A DNA stretch of 33,120 nucleotides from a bacterium (GCA_030699515.1 JAUYME010000066.1:1-33120), one strand, 5' to 3'. Shown: positions 16,916 through 32,964, counted from the stretch's first letter. The notes: generated from the letters alone by a model not told the origin. Program-made: numbers and translations.

Positions 16916-18763
16916 ATGTGTGGAATTGTTGGATACATAGGAAAGAAAAGGGCAATGCCGGTTTTGCTGGATGGTTTAAAGCGCTTGGAATATCGCGGCT
17001 ACGATAGTGCCGGGGTGGCGATTTTGGAAAACACTGAAGTTAAGGCATTTAAAAAAGTTGGGCGGGTGGAAAATTTGCTTAAAGCGATTGAGACAGCGGG
17101 GGAGTTGGACAGCATGGCCCATATTGGTGTAGCGCATACCAGATGGGCAACTCATGGAAAGCCCAGCGAGGAAAATGCTCATCCGCACAGTGATGAATTT
17201 GGTAAGTTTTGGTTGGTGCACAATGGAATTATTGAAAATTATGAGGAACTAAAGAAAGAGCTTTCAGAGAGCGGGGTAAAATTTAGTTCGGAAACGGACA
17301 CCGAGGTTGTAGTGCAGCTGATTGCTAAAGAAATGGAAGCTGGACTAAGTTTTGAAGAGGCTTTTCGAGTGGCGCTTAAAAAACTTCGAGGAGCTTATGG
17401 AATTGTAGTAATGAGTGCAGACGAGCCGGAATATTTAATGGCTGCAAGAAATTCAAGTCCGCTTTTAATTGGAGTAGGAGATGGGGAAATGATAGTAGCG
17501 TCTGATGCAAGTGCCGTTGTGGGTACAACTAAAAAAATTGTTTATTTGGAAGATGGGGAGTTGGCAAAAGTTTCAGCAGATGGGCTAAAGATTGAGCTTA
17601 TTGCCGAGGCTGGTAAAGAGTTGAAGCGCGAGGCAGAAACTGTAGATATGGATGCAAGCGAAATAGAAAAGGACGGACACGATTTCTTTATGCATAAAGA
17701 AATTTTTGAAATTCCCAGCGCTGTTTTAAATGCGGGAAGGGGAAGGTTTATTGCCAGTGAGGGTTTGGTGAAGTTTGGAGGTATTGAAGAAATTAAAAGC
17801 AAGTTAAGGGATATTGATAGAATTATTATTTCCGCTTGCGGCACCGCAGCCTATGCTGGCTTACTGGGCGAATATTTTATTGAAGAGCTGGCCGGAATTC
17901 CGGTGGAAGTGGAAATTGGCTCTGAATTCAGATACAGAAGCCCTGTATTTACGGAGCGCACTGCTTTAATTGTTGTTTCTCAATCTGGGGAAACTGCAGA
18001 TACATTGGCGGCGGTGCGAGAAGCAAAGGAGAAGGGGATTTTAGTTTTAGGTATTGTTAATGTAGTTGGCTCTACAATTGCGCGCGAAGTGGACTGTGGA
18101 ATTTATACCCATGCCGGTCCGGAAATTGGAGTGGCCTCTACAAAAGCTTTTATTTCTCAGCTTACGGTACTTTTACTTTTGGCTATTTATTTGGGCAGAC
18201 AGCGAAATTTATCTGTAAATGAAACAAAGGAAATTTTGGCAGATTTAGAGAAGCTTCCTGAGCTTTTAGATTCTATCTTGCATCGAGAAAAATTGGCAAA
18301 GAAGCTAGCAAAGAAATATAAAGATTTTACCAGCATGGCTTTCTTGGGTAGAAAATATAGTTTCCCTGTGGCGCTGGAGGGAGCTTTGAAATTAAAAGAA
18401 ATTTCTTATATCCATGGAGAAGGTTATCCGGCAGGAGAATTTAAGCATGGGCCAATTGCGCTCCTTGATGAAAAATTTCCGGTTTTCTTTATATTGCCTA
18501 GCGATGATGTTTACGAAAAAAGTAAATCTAATTTGGAAGAGATAAAAGCAAGGCAAGCGCCTGTAATTGCCATTGTGACTGAAGGAAATAAAGAATTAAT
18601 GAGAATGGCTGATGATGTTTTGGAAATCCCCAAAATAGCAAATATTTTAAGCCCGTTTCTTTCTACGCTTTGGACTTATCTTTTTGCTTACCATGTTGCG
18701 GATATGAAAAATTTGGACGTGGATAAGCCTAGAAACTTAGCTAAGTCTGTGACCGTCGAGTAA
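16916..18763 (+). CDS. glmS: Glutamine--fructose-6-phosphate aminotransferase
   Basis: N-terminal MCGIVGY, two SIS domains, C-terminal KPRNLAKSVTVE. Confidence 0.95.
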   Translation: MCGIVGYIGKKRAMPVLLDGLKRLEYRGYDSAGVAILENTEVKAFKKVGRVENLLKAIETAGELDSMAHIGVAHTRWATHGKPSEENAHPHSDEFGKFWLVHNGIIENYEELKKELSESGVKFSSETDTEVVVQLIAKEMEAGLSFEEAFRVALKKLRGAYGIVVMSADEPEYLMAARNSSPLLIGVGDGEMIVASDASAVVGTTKKIVYLEDGELAKVSADGLKIELIAEAGKELKREAETVDMDASEIEKDGHDFFMHKEIFEIPSAVLNAGRGRFIASEGLVKFGGIEEIKSKLRDIDRIIISACGTAAYAGLLGEYFIEELAGIPVEVEIGSEFRYRSPVFTERTALIVVSQSGETADTLAAVREAKEKGILVLGIVNVVGSTIAREVDCGIYTHAGPEIGVASTKAFISQLTVLLLLAIYLGRQRNLSVNETKEILADLEKLPELLDSILHREKLAKKLAKKYKDFTSMAFLGRKYSFPVALEGALKLKEISYIHGEGYPAGEFKHGPIALLDEKFPVFFILPSDDVYEKSKSNLEEIKARQAPVIAIVTEGNKELMRMADDVLEIPKIANILSPFLSTLWTYLFAYHVADMKNLDVDKPRNLAKSVTVE

Positions 18764-18770
18764 GGATGTG

Positions 18771-18837
18771 GACCCCCGCGTGCTTCGCGCGCTGCACCAG
18801 AGCCGACGAGGCAAGCTCGGGCTCGGTGCGGGGCGGG
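18771..18837. repeat. GC-rich two-hairpin element, copy 1
   Basis: gaCCCCCGC-[GCGUG cuucg CGCGC]-u-[GCACC a GAGCC ga CGAG gcaag CUCG GGCUC GGUGC]-GGGGcggg. Homologous to 19337-19406 and 32844-32912. Confidence 0.85.
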
Positions 18838-18838
18838 T

Positions 18839-18877
18839 AAACCAAGAAATTTGGCAAAAAGCGTTACTGTGGAATAA
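18839..18877 (+). pseudogene. Displaced second copy of the glmS 3' end (KPRNLAKSVTVE*), synonymously different from 18725-18763
   Basis: aaa cca aga aat ttg gca aaa agc gtt act gtg gaa taa translates identically to the last 12 codons plus stop of glmS. It lies 114 nt downstream in the same frame. Confidence 0.8.
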
Positions 18878-18883
18878 AGAAAT

Positions 18884-18916
18884 AAAAAACACCTCGCAAG
18901 CGCGGGGTGTTTTTTA
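18884..18916. terminator. Bidirectional intrinsic terminator
   Basis: aaaaaacacctcgc-aa-gcgcggggtgtttttt, between convergent glmS and the small membrane gene. Confidence 0.7.
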
Positions 18917-18931
18917 TTTTATACTGCTGAA

Positions 18932-19168
18932 CTATTCAGTGCCAGAGTCTTCGCCGTCAGGAAGGCTAATGTCTACATCAACTCCTGTGCCGTCGTTGTC
19001 TGTATCTTCGCTACTTCCTCCTGCAAAGTAGAAGATAAGGCCGGCAACAACTACAATTAGGATAATGATAGTAATCCACATTCCGCCGTTACCGCCTTTG
19101 CGCTCTGGCTGGCTAGCCATTGGCTGCTGCCCTTGAGGTGCTTGGCCTTGTTGTTCTTGGTTTTCCAT
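18932..19168 (-). CDS. Small single-pass membrane protein (78 aa), paralog of 16375..16620
   Basis: Q/G-rich N-terminus, TM MWITIIILIVVVAGLIFYFA, C-terminal GVDVDISLPDGEDSG. Confidence 0.55.
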   Translation of the reverse strand: MENQEQQGQAPQGQQPMASQPERKGGNGGMWITIIILIVVVAGLIFYFAGGSSEDTDNDGTGVDVDISLPDGEDSGTE

Positions 19169-19336
19169 AGTGTGTATGTTGTTAATTTCTAATGAATACT
19201 AGTAAAAGCATAACATTATTATAGAATAATGCTCGTTTTGCAGTGGAAAAATAGAGAGTAATCGCGAACATCGCGAATTGCGCAAAATATCGCGAATAAA
19301 ACTAAGGCGGGGAAAATTGGGTTATTCCAAGGTTGA

Positions 19337-19461
19337 GACCCCCGCATGGCAAGCCGTGCTGCACCAGAACCAACGAAGTAAATTCGGGCTCGGTGCGGGG
19401 CAGGACTTGGTAGCTTGCTGGTGTGTACTTAGTGATGGGCTGGATAGTTTTTCAATCGGTC
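19337..19461. repeat. GC-rich two-hairpin element, copy 2 (core 19337-19406) plus a ~55-nt tail, bounded by 19-nt direct repeats
   Basis: Core homologous to copies 1 and 3. Direct repeats ttattccaaggttgagacc at 19322-19340 and 19462-19480. Confidence 0.85.
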
Positions 19462-19953
19462 TTATTCCAAGGTTGAGACCGTGGACTGCAAAGATCTAGT
19501 TTCTTTGATTTGAGGATTGTCCGGGTTGGAAGTCAATACAATAGAAATTTGCACAGCAGTGGTAGAGGTGCCGCTAAATTCCTGGAAAGTTAGGCTGTCT
19601 AGCGTAACATCGGCGCTTGTTAGCGCTTCTTGCGAATTTGACCCCAGCTTTCTGTAGATTGTTCCTGCTGAACTGTTGATTATAATCGGGTCGGTGCTTG
19701 ACACTCCGGTAGTAATTGTAAGGGTTGAACTGCTGACAGATATTGATTGACCCTGGCGGACGTCGGTTTTGATAACATTCATTACAAAGCTTAGCTCACT
19801 GCTTAGTTTATAGCCTGAGCTTTGATGCTGCTGAACTCTAAGAATTGTAAATAGTATTCCTGAAAGAAGGCTAAGAAGGATAACGGTAAGGCCAAGGTAG
19901 ATGACCAGCTCAATGAAAGAAAGCCCCCGCGTGCTTCGCGCGCTTTTAAACAC
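19462..19953 (-). CDS. Prepilin-type (type IV pilin-like) pseudopilin; start uncertain (GTG 19953 or ATG 20028)
   Basis: G|LSFIELVIYLGLTVILLSLL is a class III signal/methylation motif. The stretch upstream of the Gly is repeat-derived sequence. Confidence 0.7.
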   Translation of the reverse strand: MFKSARSTRGLSFIELVIYLGLTVILLSLLSGILFTILRVQQHQSSGYKLSSELSFVMNVIKTDVRQGQSISVSSSTLTITTGVSSTDPIIINSSAGTIYRKLGSNSQEALTSADVTLDSLTFQEFSGTSTTAVQISIVLTSNPDNPQIKETRSLQSTVSTLE

Positions 19954-20044
19954 TAATGCACGAATGGGCGCGAATCCTCTAATAAGAAATGAAGGTCCTT
20001 TCGTTTTATTCGGTGATTGATGAATCATTGGTGTATTAGTGTTT
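19948..20044. repeat. MITE-like inverted-repeat element E1 (termini AAACACTAATGCAC ... GTGTATTAGTGTTT)
   Basis: Homologous, in reverse orientation, to 29112-29227. Shares a 19-nt identical end, cattggtgtattagtgttt. Confidence 0.75.
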
Positions 20045-20131
20045 ATCTATGAATTTTAGCATGTAGTATTGATTATTTTTTTCAAAGCTTGTATTATCCA
20101 GAAGTCTGGGGTAGCCCAGACTTATTTAATT

Positions 20132-20836
20132 ATGACGGATAGTAATGAAACCGGAACACAGGTAAAAGACTCAATGCTTGAAGAGATGGCGCAGGCCGGT
20201 CTTTTGTTTGGGCGGAAAAAATCAAAGACTAATCCAAAAATGAAGGATTATGTTTTTGCGAACCGAAACGGCTTTGAGATGTTTGATTTGGAAAAAACCG
20301 CCGCAAAGCTTGAGGAAGCTAAGGCATTTTTGGCTTCCGTGGCAAAGACCGGGAAAACTATTTTGTTTGTTGGTACTACTCCTGCGGGCCAAGAAGTTAT
20401 GAAGGAAGTTGCCGAAGGCTTTAAGGCTCCTTATGTAACCCATAGGTGGCTTGGCGGTACTTTAAGTAATTTTGAAACAATTTCTTCACGGCTTAGGTAT
20501 TTTATTAAACTTAAGGCCGACAAAGAATCCGGAAAACTTGAAAAATATACCAAGAAGGAGCGGACAAAATTTGATAAAGAGCTGGAAAGATTAGAGAGGC
20601 TTTTCGGCGGTCTTGAAGAATTAACTGCTATGCCTGCCGCACTCATTGTGGCAAATACAGATGCGCATTCAATTGCAGTAAGAGAGGCAAATATTGCAGG
20701 AGTGCCGGTAATTGGAATTACAAATTCCAGCACCGATCCTGAGGGCGTAGATTATCTGATTCCGGCAAATGACAACAGTATTTCTAGCGTGCGTTGGATT
20801 GTTGAGCAATTAGCGCAGGCGTTAAAGACGAAGTAA
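20132..20836 (+). CDS. rpsB: 30S ribosomal protein S2
   Basis: MLEEMAQAGLLFGRKKSKTNPKM... and HRWLGGTLSNF. ATG 20132 preferred over the ORF-track start. Confidence 0.9.
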   Translation: MTDSNETGTQVKDSMLEEMAQAGLLFGRKKSKTNPKMKDYVFANRNGFEMFDLEKTAAKLEEAKAFLASVAKTGKTILFVGTTPAGQEVMKEVAEGFKAPYVTHRWLGGTLSNFETISSRLRYFIKLKADKESGKLEKYTKKERTKFDKELERLERLFGGLEELTAMPAALIVANTDAHSIAVREANIAGVPVIGITNSSTDPEGVDYLIPANDNSISSVRWIVEQLAQALKTK

Positions 20837-27613: not shown

Positions 27614-29113
27614 ATGAGCATAGATAGATTAATAAGTGAAATTAAAAGCAAAATAGATTCCGTTGAAACCGGTGTAAAAAGCCAGGAGGTTGGTACGGTT
27701 GTTGAAGCCGCAGACGGAATTGCAAAAATTTCCGGTCTATCTGAGTGTTTGGCTAGCGAATTGCTTGAATTTGAAAATGGCGAGTTTGGAATTGCTTTGA
27801 ACCTAGAGGCAGATACGGTTGGAGCAATTATTTTTGGAAATTTTAAAGATATTAAGGAGGGCGATAGTGTAAAGCGAACGGAGCGAGTTTTAGAAGTTCC
27901 GGTTGGAGAGGGAGTAATGGGCAGGATTGTAGATCCTTTAATGAACCCAATTGATGGAAAGGGTCCGATTAAGGCGGATAAGAATATGTATATAGAGCGC
28001 AAAGCTCCCGGTGTGATGAGTAGAGAAGGAGTAAACCAACCGCTTCAAACCGGAATTAAGGCTATTGATGCGTTAACTCCTGTTGGTAGGGGGCAAAGAG
28101 AGCTGATAATTGGAGATAGGCAAACAGGAAAAACCACTGTTGCTATAGATGCAATTTTGAATCAAAAAGGAAAAGATATTAAGTGTGTTTATGTGGCCAT
28201 TGCTCAAAAGAAAAGCAAGATTGCCAAAATTGTTAAAACTTTAGAGGAGGCTGGGGCGATGGAGTACACAACTGTGGTGCTTTCTGGAAGCAGCGACAGT
28301 GCCGCGCTTTCATATCTTGCTCCATACACCGGAGCGGCAATTTGCGAGTACTTTATGGACAAGAGCCAAGACACGCTAGTAATTTACGACGATCTTAGTA
28401 AGCACGCGGTGGCTTACAGAGAAATTTCACTTTTGCTACGCCGTCCTCCCGGCCGAGAAGCGTATCCGGGAGACGTGTTTTATCTTCACTCCAGGTTATT
28501 GGAGAGAGCATGTAGAAGAAACAAGAAGCACAAAGGCGGATCTATGACAGCACTGCCAATTATTGAAACTCAGGCGGGGGATTTGTCTGCCTACATTCCA
28601 ACCAATGTTATCTCAATTACCGACGGGCAGATTTTCTTGGATACGGGGCTGTTCAACAAAGGAATTCGGCCGGCAATTGATGCCGGGCTTTCAGTTTCTC
28701 GTGTTGGAGGAAATGCCCAGATTAAGTCTATGAAGAAGATTTCCGGAAAGGTAAAGCTAGAGCTGGCTCAGTTTAGAGAGCTGGAAAGCTTTGCTCAATT
28801 TGCCAGTGACCTAGATGCAGACACAAAGGCAAAGCTAGACCGTGGTGCGCGAATCACAGAAGCGCTGAAGCAGGGCCAGAACAAGCCAATTGATGCCAGC
28901 CTTCAAGGGGCTTGGATTTACTTTGTAACTAATGGTCACGCCGATAAATTGGAACTTTCTGCAATTGGGGCAACAGAGCAGGCTTTTTACAAGTTTTTAA
29001 CTGCCAGTAAGAAGGATTTGCTAAAAGATATGGAGGTAGATTGGGACGAAAAAATTCAGAAGGAGTTGGATAAGGCGATTAAAGAATTTCAGAGCGTACA
29101 CGCACGCTCATAA
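27614..29113 (+). CDS. atpA: F1 ATP synthase subunit alpha
   Basis: Walker A GDRQTGKT. Alpha signature regions. Confidence 0.95.
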
Positions 29114-29227
29114 ACACTAATACACCAATGAAGCACGAATCAGCTAATGAAATGCAAAAATATCAATTAACAAAAAACCATCTAGGCCTAATTAGAGGAT
29201 TGGCGATTAATTAGTGCATTAGTGTTT
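29112..29227. repeat. MITE-like inverted-repeat element E2 (AAACACTAATACAC ... GTGCATTAGTGTTT)
   Basis: Fills the whole atpA-atpG spacer and overlaps the atpA stop. Reverse orientation relative to E1 (19948-20044). Confidence 0.75.
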
Positions 29228-32679: not shown

Positions 32680-32843
32680 CTCACACGGAAGCCACAACTT
32701 CCGGCGCTAGGCGCCGGTACGCAACTTCCCGGGGGTCGCCGTATCTGCGGCGACCCCCAGACCCCATAGCCCTTGTAGCTCCCGCCCGTTGCAAAGTAAT
32801 GGGCGAGGCTCGCCCAGCAGCAAAGCTGCTTCGGGCGGCAATG
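32680..32843. other. Chain of GC-rich hairpins, including a second Y-shaped unit (CCGCCC [GGGCGA ggc UCGCCC][AGCAGC aaa GCUGCU] GGGCGG)
   Basis: ggaagcc-acaa-cttcc, ggcgc-tag-gcgcc and gggggtcgccg-tatct-gcggcgaccccc are read directly. All ORFs here look like off-frame noise. Confidence 0.5.
32769..32781 (+). other. Duplicated fragment of the tRNA-Arg 5' end (gcccttgtagctc versus gcctttgtagctc at 32965-32977)
   Basis: 12 of 13 nt identical, same orientation, 196 nt upstream of the intact tRNA. Confidence 0.6.
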
Positions 32844-32912
32844 GACCCCCGCGCGCTTCGCGTGCTGCACCAGAACCAACGAGGCAAGCTCGGGTTCGGT
32901 GCGGGGCAGGAC
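32844..32912. repeat. GC-rich two-hairpin element, copy 3
   Basis: gacccccgcgcgcttcgcgtgctgcaccagaaccaacgaggcaagctcgggttcggtgcggggcaggac. Confidence 0.85.
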
Positions 32913-32964
32913 TCAATAGCCATTAGCCCTGATGTTGTTTGTATGCTTTGATGCGCGTGAATAT

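Follow-up and report, generated by a model that had tools for sequence, protein, structure and literature searches.

A minor pilin gene with a putatively repeat-derived start codon and leader peptide in a small-genome bacterium

In-frame fusions between palindromic repeats and open reading frames (ORFs) are already documented, as are MITEs that lie immediately upstream of genes. The former are represented by the Rickettsia palindromic elements (RPEs), which insert in frame in protein-coding genes (Ogata et al. 2000, summarised in PMC10969869), and the latter by the Correia elements (CREE) of Neisseria, which are MITEs with terminal inverted repeats and a TA target, are found mostly immediately upstream of genes and are co-transcribed with them (PMC10969869). 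Intragenic repeats of the ERIC/BOX type with small ORFs have also been described (Delihas 2007, cited in PMC10969869).

The sequence analysed here (the window) is an entire 33-kb contig, C43, of 33,120 nucleotides, from a metagenome-assembled groundwater genome (668 kb, 43% GC, 75 contigs, 92.6% complete). Gene content and relatives place its host among the small-genome CPR/Patescibacteria. In CPR bacteria, pilus genes are important for taking up DNA and attaching to hosts. In one minor pilin gene of the window, the original start codon and leader-coding sequence appear to have been replaced by sequence from two repeat families, E1 and D1. Comparative sequence analysis leads us to regard this as a working gene with an element-derived, cleavable leader, with a probability of about 0.6.

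The pilin gene and its 5' junction

The pilin ORF lies on the minus strand and runs from ATG 20028 or GTG 19953 to the stop at 19462 (Table 1). Its N-terminal region reads KSARSTRG followed by mature LSFIELVIYLGLTVILLSLL (also ...STRG, then LSFIELVIYLGLTVILLSLLSGIL) and carries the prepilin signature of Gly(−1), Glu(+5) and then ∼20 hydrophobic residues. Gly, Glu(+5) and Tyr(+9) are invariant among 13 aligned orthologs (that of the window and 12 others), with which the mature part of the window protein aligns over its full length; its 153 residues compare with 151 to 166 in the family. Residues +1 to +3 are LSF, compared with F/M/L-T/S-L in the other aligned orthologs. All 12 of these orthologs are hit by the Pfam model N_methyl (PF07963; best E 1e-7) but the window protein is not, and it has only weak matches to ComGF and PRK10557 (E 0.005 to 0.03).

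Table 1. Coordinates of the pilin gene, its 5' junction and related repeat copies in the window
Feature	Position	Strand	Remarks
Extended −10-like box TGCTAAAAT	20053..20061	−	Conserved with closest relatives (rpsB-pilin spacer alignment)
E1	19948..20044	−	Complete 97-nt MITE-like inverted-repeat element; catalogue, alignment, RNA fold, frame analysis
ATG in E1 A arm	20026..20028	−	Element position 17; 35-residue leader; first AUG after predicted transcription start
GTG in last six bases of E1	19951..19953	−	Alternative start; 10-residue leader MFKSARSTRG
AAA (Lys) junction codon, E1/21-mer	19945..19947	−	First A possibly part of an E1 TA target duplication
D1-derived 21-mer (C-run and hairpin 1, in the + orientation of D1)	19924..19944	+	Exact match to 18773-18793
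Mature minor-pilin coding region	19462..19923	−	153 codons, begins LSFIELVIYLGL; ORF list, ortholog alignment, dN/dS
Pilin stop TAA	19464-19462	−	
D1 copy 1	18770..18840	+	GC-rich three-stem; just past glmS stop; hairpin 1 equals pilin 21-mer
D1 copy 2	19337..19407	+	Full copy, 55 nt downstream of pilin stop; orientation as 5' fragment
Further D1 copy	32843-32913		
E2	29112..29227	+	E1-family copy closest to E1 (76% identity); ends 2 nt before atpG ATG

Between the upstream stop and Gly(−1), the only in-frame ATG, GTG or TTG codons are ATG 20028-20026 and GTG 19953-19951, both within E1. The A arm of E1 begins at 20044 and its B arm ends at 19948, beside the pilin, and one frame of the element is open throughout and continuous with the pilin. 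The first-pass annotation had traced the only nearby start codons to the end of E1; these two codons are indeed the only ones, but the whole of E1, and not just its end, lies inside the possible ORF. The GTG falls within the 11-bp terminal stem of the E1 hairpin (RNA fold), and the leader read from the ATG, at 35 residues, would be unusually long. At either length the leader is wholly repeat-encoded and basic, with no acidic residue and no start of its own outside E1.

The 21 nt at 19924-19944 and 18773-18793 are identical at 21/21 positions, exactly as first annotated. Read in the minus-strand direction, the 21 nt amount to seven complete codons (AGC GCG CGA AGC ACG CGG GGG) specifying SARSTRG; the Lys of the KSARSTRG earlier attributed to this stretch is encoded by AAA 19947-19945, outside the repeat. 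GGG (19926-19924), the codon for Gly(−1), is inside the 21-mer and corresponds to the C-run of D1, and CTT (19923-19921) encodes mature residue +1. The match takes in both the C-run and the loop, and its borders are the structural borders of D1 hairpin 1.

E1 and the 21-mer are repetitive, and the genome was assembled from a metagenome into 75 contigs; mis-assembly at repeats was therefore considered, along with chance resemblance, but both explanations are extremely improbable. The window holds three matches to the 21-mer with ≤3 mismatches, against 0.01 expected. A separately assembled Logan contig of 1,514 nt has zero differences from the window over 19462-20400, and the junctions are therefore not an assembly artefact. 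In addition, a 21-nt repeat is below the assembler word size and E1 copies are only ∼73% alike. Among assembled public contigs, no alternative joint was seen at the pilin 5' end, and a search for RNA runs containing the locus returned none.

Orthologs of the pilin were found in 35 of the 40 relatives searched. Those from the relatives' genomes have an in-frame ATG in 16 of 17 cases, with leaders mostly of 5 to 22 residues; when the two closest public homologs (83% and 74% identical proteins) are included, 18 of 19 have their own ATG and leaders are mostly of 5 to 30 residues. The sister-species locus is syntenic (small membrane protein, pilin, divergent rpsB-tsf), and its pilin starts at an ATG and has the leader MAKNRLSKTAG. 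The closest relatives, with proteins 83%, 74% and 41% identical to that of the window, showed neither E1 nor the 21-mer at this locus, and their leaders are unrelated to that of the window gene. The alignment with orthologous pilins thus bears out the earlier claim that the start and leader of the window gene are element-derived. The possibility that the long leaders of the two closest relatives are decayed E1 copies was rejected, as the nhmmer E1 profile gave no hit at E ≤ 10. A protein-based scan of metagenomes found no further relatives.

In the two closest homologs, the ATG lies 6 nt downstream of a conserved (G/T)AAAAT box that is kept in the window (Table 1). The box was called from this conservation and not from a sigma-70 consensus scan, which around the pilin gene was not above shuffled background. 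Of 19 orthologs, 12 have a TAnnnT hexamer 6 to 7 nt ahead of the ATG, in many cases with a TG one base before the hexamer (L002-L020, L047 and L048). A −10-like box so close to the ATG is read as a sign of leaderless mRNA and suggests that the pilin may be transcribed without a leader across the family. In the window, the distance from the box to the start of E1 is 8 nt, so that E1 occupies the exact site of the relatives' ATG, and the sequence between the box and mature codon 1 consists of E1, one Lys codon and the D1 piece. A different insertion, of ∼290 nt and bounded by a perfect 16-nt inverted repeat (CCCCCACAATAGGAAT), is present in the rpsB-pilin spacer of the 83% relative (L047, ∼770-1058). 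Small elements seem prone to land in this spacer.

The claim that repeat elements lie at both ends of the gene also stands, D1 copy 2 being located at 19337-19407, beyond the pilin stop. The segment containing this copy is flanked by an 18-nt direct repeat (19322-19339 and 19464-19481) that contains the final codons and stop of the pilin.

The E1 family and its pilin fusions

E1 belongs to a family of 20 paired copies of 77 to 143 nt, with termini AAACAC[TC]AAT[AG]CAC, that are dispersed genome-wide; this genome yielded 25 BLAST hits and, counting halves, 57 nhmmer hits. BLAST found no E1 in the same-genus sister species and no convincing hit in 39 further relatives, and an nhmmer E1 profile had no hit in 21 ortholog loci. 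With 25 hits here and none in the sister species, E1 therefore behaves like a lineage-specific MITE. A T precedes 16 of the 20 copies and an A follows 13, which fits either TA duplication or part of the terminal repeat. Copies share a mean identity of ∼73%, and the window copy, with a terminal branch of 0.68 substitutions per site, is among the longest-branched in the family tree. Its insertion is therefore probably old, but the branch length may instead reflect a diverged source copy. No match to an IS630-type (DDE_3) transposase partner was found in the 92.6%-complete assembly; a mariner model search also gave no match, but neither did its controls. No promoter was identified in E1.

A metagenome scan for the E1-end signature returned two unrelated contigs. 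A ∼50-nt palindrome with E1-like arms (AAACAC..CTAATGCACGAAT / ATTCGTGCATTAGTGTTT) lies just past a gene end in an unrelated 150-kb contig (L071:5150-5203) and is probably a coincidental terminator-like hairpin.

Insertion of E1 is strongly oriented with respect to genes. The B arm faces a gene start within 37 nt in 14 of 18 full copies (15 with a short rpmJ), and in 12 of these 14 the distance to the start codon is 2 to 11 nt; on the A-arm side, a gene start lies within 37 nt in 4 of 18. The genes preceded by E1 include rplN, secY, rpmJ, ssb and atpG, and no Shine-Dalgarno sequence was found between E1 and the neighbouring start codons. In 10 of 16 nonpilin copies, the A-arm ATG (M-x-H-Q/E-S-x-N...) opens a mini-ORF of 22 to 31 codons that stops in the terminal repeat, 5 to 20 nt before the element end and a few bases before the neighbour's ATG. 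In a genome without Shine-Dalgarno sites, a stop in this position would suit termination-reinitiation coupling. Orientation and mini-ORFs could represent a translational coupling device or, alternatively, a by-product of a TAG in the terminal repeat.

Two more minor pilin genes, on contigs C68 and C2, directly follow an E1 B arm. Each of the three pilin-associated copies is exactly 97 nt long, and in all three the A-arm ATG frame (position 17, M-x-HQSPN...) is open and in phase into the pilin, the fused frame ending ...LVFK-x(4-7)-G just ahead of the mature N terminus. In none of the 16 other copies is this frame fused to the neighbouring gene, and in two it is open through the element. If copies are independent, 3/3 against 0/16 has a probability of ∼1 in 1,000 by hypergeometric arithmetic. 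The E1 tree does not place the three copies in one cluster, and they therefore look independent; their pairwise identity (∼76%) is near the family mean, and a single duplicated 5' module as the source of all three was rejected on these grounds. The sister-species orthologs of the C68 and C2 pilins have plain ATG leaders (MNNKG and MKTMNHKNG). Both E1-fused genes have a possible start just after E1 (ATG, giving MQG, and TTG, giving MRQQRG), but the window gene has none; with no start between E1 and Gly, it is therefore the sole case with an obligatory element-internal start.

The window pilin and the unrelated C68 pilin share an identical order at the junction: E1 end, AAA, 21-mer, GGG and mature codon 1. 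Their 21-mers agree at 16/21 positions, with all five differences being GC-to-AT, and that of C68 is nearest (18/21) to another D1 variant, which would read ATG-CGG-GGG. Independent events at identical borders seem unlikely. The shared junction does not follow from simple independent insertions, and the lack of clustering among E1 copies does not settle the matter. The junction might reflect conversion of short tracts between the 5' ends of pilin genes, a tendency of E1 to choose TA sites next to GC hairpins, or conversion of the window copy by D1. Two further E1 copies lie at TA sites beside GC hairpins, and a D1 element that could have served as conversion donor is 1.15 kb from the pilin 21-mer.

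Selection on the pilin gene and origin of its leader

In comparison with the 83% relative, the mature region has a dN of 0.106 and a dS of 1.47, giving a dN/dS of 0.07, which is a whole-branch average in which very recent inactivation would not show. With the 74% relative as the outgroup, 15 synonymous and 3 nonsynonymous codon changes fall on the window branch, and 18 and 4 fall on the sister branch. Judged from these substitutions, the mature region is under purifying selection and, if the long branch of E1 reflects age, stayed so long after the insertion.

The machinery required for pilus assembly is encoded in the same genome. A prepilin peptidase, for which the first-pass annotation had proposed looking outside the window, is present as PilD (PF01478, Peptidase_A24) at C68:971-1357, at 45.3 bits against a cut-off of 26.5. 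There are five T2SSE matches representing PilB/T-type ATPases and six T2SSF domain hits in three genes for a PilC-type platform, and the major pilins have canonical short leaders (e.g., MNKKG and MQIKGKG). In C68:971-4308, four pilin-like genes lie consecutively after PilD, and the spacers between them contain E1 copies or half-copies and GC hairpins. Long in-frame stretches upstream of Gly are present in the minor pilins at C14:913, C31:446, C68:174, C68:3194 and C2:5602 and consist of short repeated words (AGATCCGCG type and CCTATAACCTA type) that also occur in intergenic spacers.

The first-pass annotation had left exaptation and damage as alternatives, and the evidence favors exaptation, given the full-length mature part, a dN/dS of 0.07, nonsynonymous change that is not elevated and the presence of the pilus machinery. 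If the gene were damaged, E1, with the D1 fragment, would have removed the real start and leader, and the ORF, now untranslated or unprocessable, would be open only because inactivation was recent. Several features are consistent with such damage, namely, the absence of ATG, GTG or TTG between E1 and Gly(−1), in a family in which 18 of 19 orthologs use their own ATG; the burial of GTG 19953 in the E1 stem; the status of the window protein as the only one of the 13 aligned that fails N_methyl; and the 100% identity of the 21-mer to D1 copy 1, so that this part of the junction may be young. When E1 is removed in silico, the expected start position holds ATA or AAA, and not ATG. We nevertheless consider damage unlikely. 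Substitutions on the window branch resemble those on the sister branch; the 153 codons contain no stop or frameshift, while the E1 copy has diverged by ∼0.68 substitutions per site; neutral decay would not predict an E1 frame in phase in 3/3 pilin copies and 0/16 others; and the pilus machinery genes are intact.

The same in silico removal bears on how a working gene could have acquired this junction. As removal regenerates no start codon, the present junction must have arisen in several steps, and a simple insertion history is insufficient; under the TA-duplication model of removal, the frame is also off by one.

The D1 element is GC-rich, spans ∼71 nt and folds into three stems; across 10 copies, compensatory double changes affect 11 of its 23 pairs. 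With a covariance model, 10 copies were detected in this genome, 8 in the sister species G001 and 3 in G003, which represents one further genus, but none in 38 other relatives. The pilin 21-mer is not a match to this model; it is a fragment (C-run and hairpin 1) rather than a full member of the family. One D1 copy of G001 carries the D1 version of the 21-mer (20/21), which identifies D1 as the donor or older carrier and the pilin 21-mer as derived. No Rfam family was found for D1, E1 or the junction, either at the gathering threshold over the whole window or at E ≤ 1 over 18700-20150; the Rfam matches in the window are tRNAs and weak terminator-like hits.

A GC hairpin also encodes the leader ends of three orthologs from another genus (L013:1480-1520, L011:1447-1512 and L020:1450-1515), which read R-A/S-S-R-(x)-G. 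Two of these hairpins contain the D1 13-mer, and the third is kept through compensatory changes.

It is also conceivable that only E1 was inserted and that the 21-mer is an ancestral leader hairpin whose sequence was replaced through short-tract gene conversion, with the D1 element 1.15 kb away as donor, a history that is compatible with a working gene. The leader of the 83% relative has a hairpin with the same stems (GCGCGC-ATTT-GCACGC, compared with GCGCGC-GAA-GCACGC in the window), and the leaders of orthologs from another genus include the D1 hairpin 1 13-mer CGYGCTTCGCGCG, on the sense strand and as a single genomic copy, in genomes where the covariance model detected no D1. Perfect identity to the nearest D1 beside a much-diverged E1 likewise suggests recent homogenisation. 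However, the match to D1 includes the C-run and loop and ends exactly at the borders of hairpin 1; in frame and position the window hairpin differs from those of the relatives, the one in the 83% relative also having another loop and another spacing from Gly, and no hairpin is present in the pilin leader of the sister species; and the C68 pilin has the same 21-mer borders but is closest to another D1 variant. We therefore judge conversion of an ancestral hairpin improbable.

Proposed mechanism and comparison with known systems

Under our preferred reading of a working gene, E1 would have landed at the transcription and translation start of a probably leaderless pilin gene, and a 21-nt D1 piece would have come to adjoin mature codon 1. 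The retained −10 box would give a transcript beginning at about the edge of E1, and translation would begin within E1, most likely at ATG 20028, the first AUG after the box, or alternatively at GTG 19953. The ribosome would then read through E1, one Lys codon and the D1 piece, producing a basic leader, 35 (or 10) residues long, that terminates in Arg-Gly, with the Gly supplied by the D1 C-run, and PilD would cut after Gly(−1) to free the conserved mature pilin. We infer the choice of start codon, the production and cleavage of the protein and the order of the junction-building events.

Since a prepilin leader is cut away and has few requirements other than Gly(−1) and positive charge, its replacement would be tolerated in pilins. 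This would explain why three pilins have in-frame fusions while other E1 copies stay outside genes: replacement may be nearly neutral in pilins, and an extension may be harmful in ordinary proteins, which fits the distribution of 3/3 and 0/16. A bolder proposal, about which we are doubtful, is that E1 is a mobile translation-start cassette that, with the Arg-Gly of the D1 hairpin, forms a transposable prepilin leader and has replaced the native leaders of three minor pilins.

If the preferred reading is true, the window pilin clearly illustrates how, in nature, selfish repeat DNA can be co-opted to supply both the start codon and the signal-type leader of a conserved gene, and such recruitment would have occurred on three occasions in a genome that ranks among the smallest in bacteria. 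The implication would be that protein ends that are cleaved off absorb repeat insertions without cost, and pilin leaders may therefore be a preferred landing zone. Gene callers and N_methyl mishandle such genes, the start being called at the ATG inside the repeat and the motif being missed. More generally, the oriented placement of E1, hugging start codons, raises the question of how translation starts without Shine-Dalgarno sites.

E1 resembles RPEs in being a palindromic repeat (∼100 to 150 nt) with one open frame that has repeatedly been incorporated into host ORFs of a single reduced genome while leaving them intact, and in the window pilin the element lies in frame within an ORF, the remainder of which is conserved, as in RPEs. 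RPEs, however, are intragenic and provide the mature protein with an additional internal segment at its surface, whereas E1 replaces the extreme N terminus and supplies the start codon, and its peptide is expected to be cut off. Furthermore, 3 of ∼19 E1 copies are fused, all of them to pilins. Like Correia elements, which have a TA target and mostly lie just upstream of genes, E1 has T/A flanks and, in most copies, is positioned 2 to 11 nt before the start codon in a single orientation. Correia elements exert their effects through promoters, IHF sites and RNase III processing, and PMC10969869 does not describe them as encoding an N terminus; for E1, neither a promoter nor a matching transposase was found.

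The window leader is like those of type IV prepilins and pseudopilins (PilD/GspO) in being basic and ending in Gly(−1), with Glu at +5, a hydrophobic helix and a peptidase in the genome, but unlike them it is not inherited with the gene, being assembled from repeat DNA to a length of 10 or 35 residues. Repeats of the ERIC/BOX type, as intergenic-type repeats occasionally found in reading frames, can also create new peptide segments, but they do so sporadically and are tied neither to one protein class nor to a cleavable signal. The present case differs from these systems in that (i) one repeat would provide the start codon and an entire cleavable leader, (ii) a second repeat would provide the cleavage-site Gly, (iii) the fusions are confined to one protein class, and (iv) they are found in a CPR genome.
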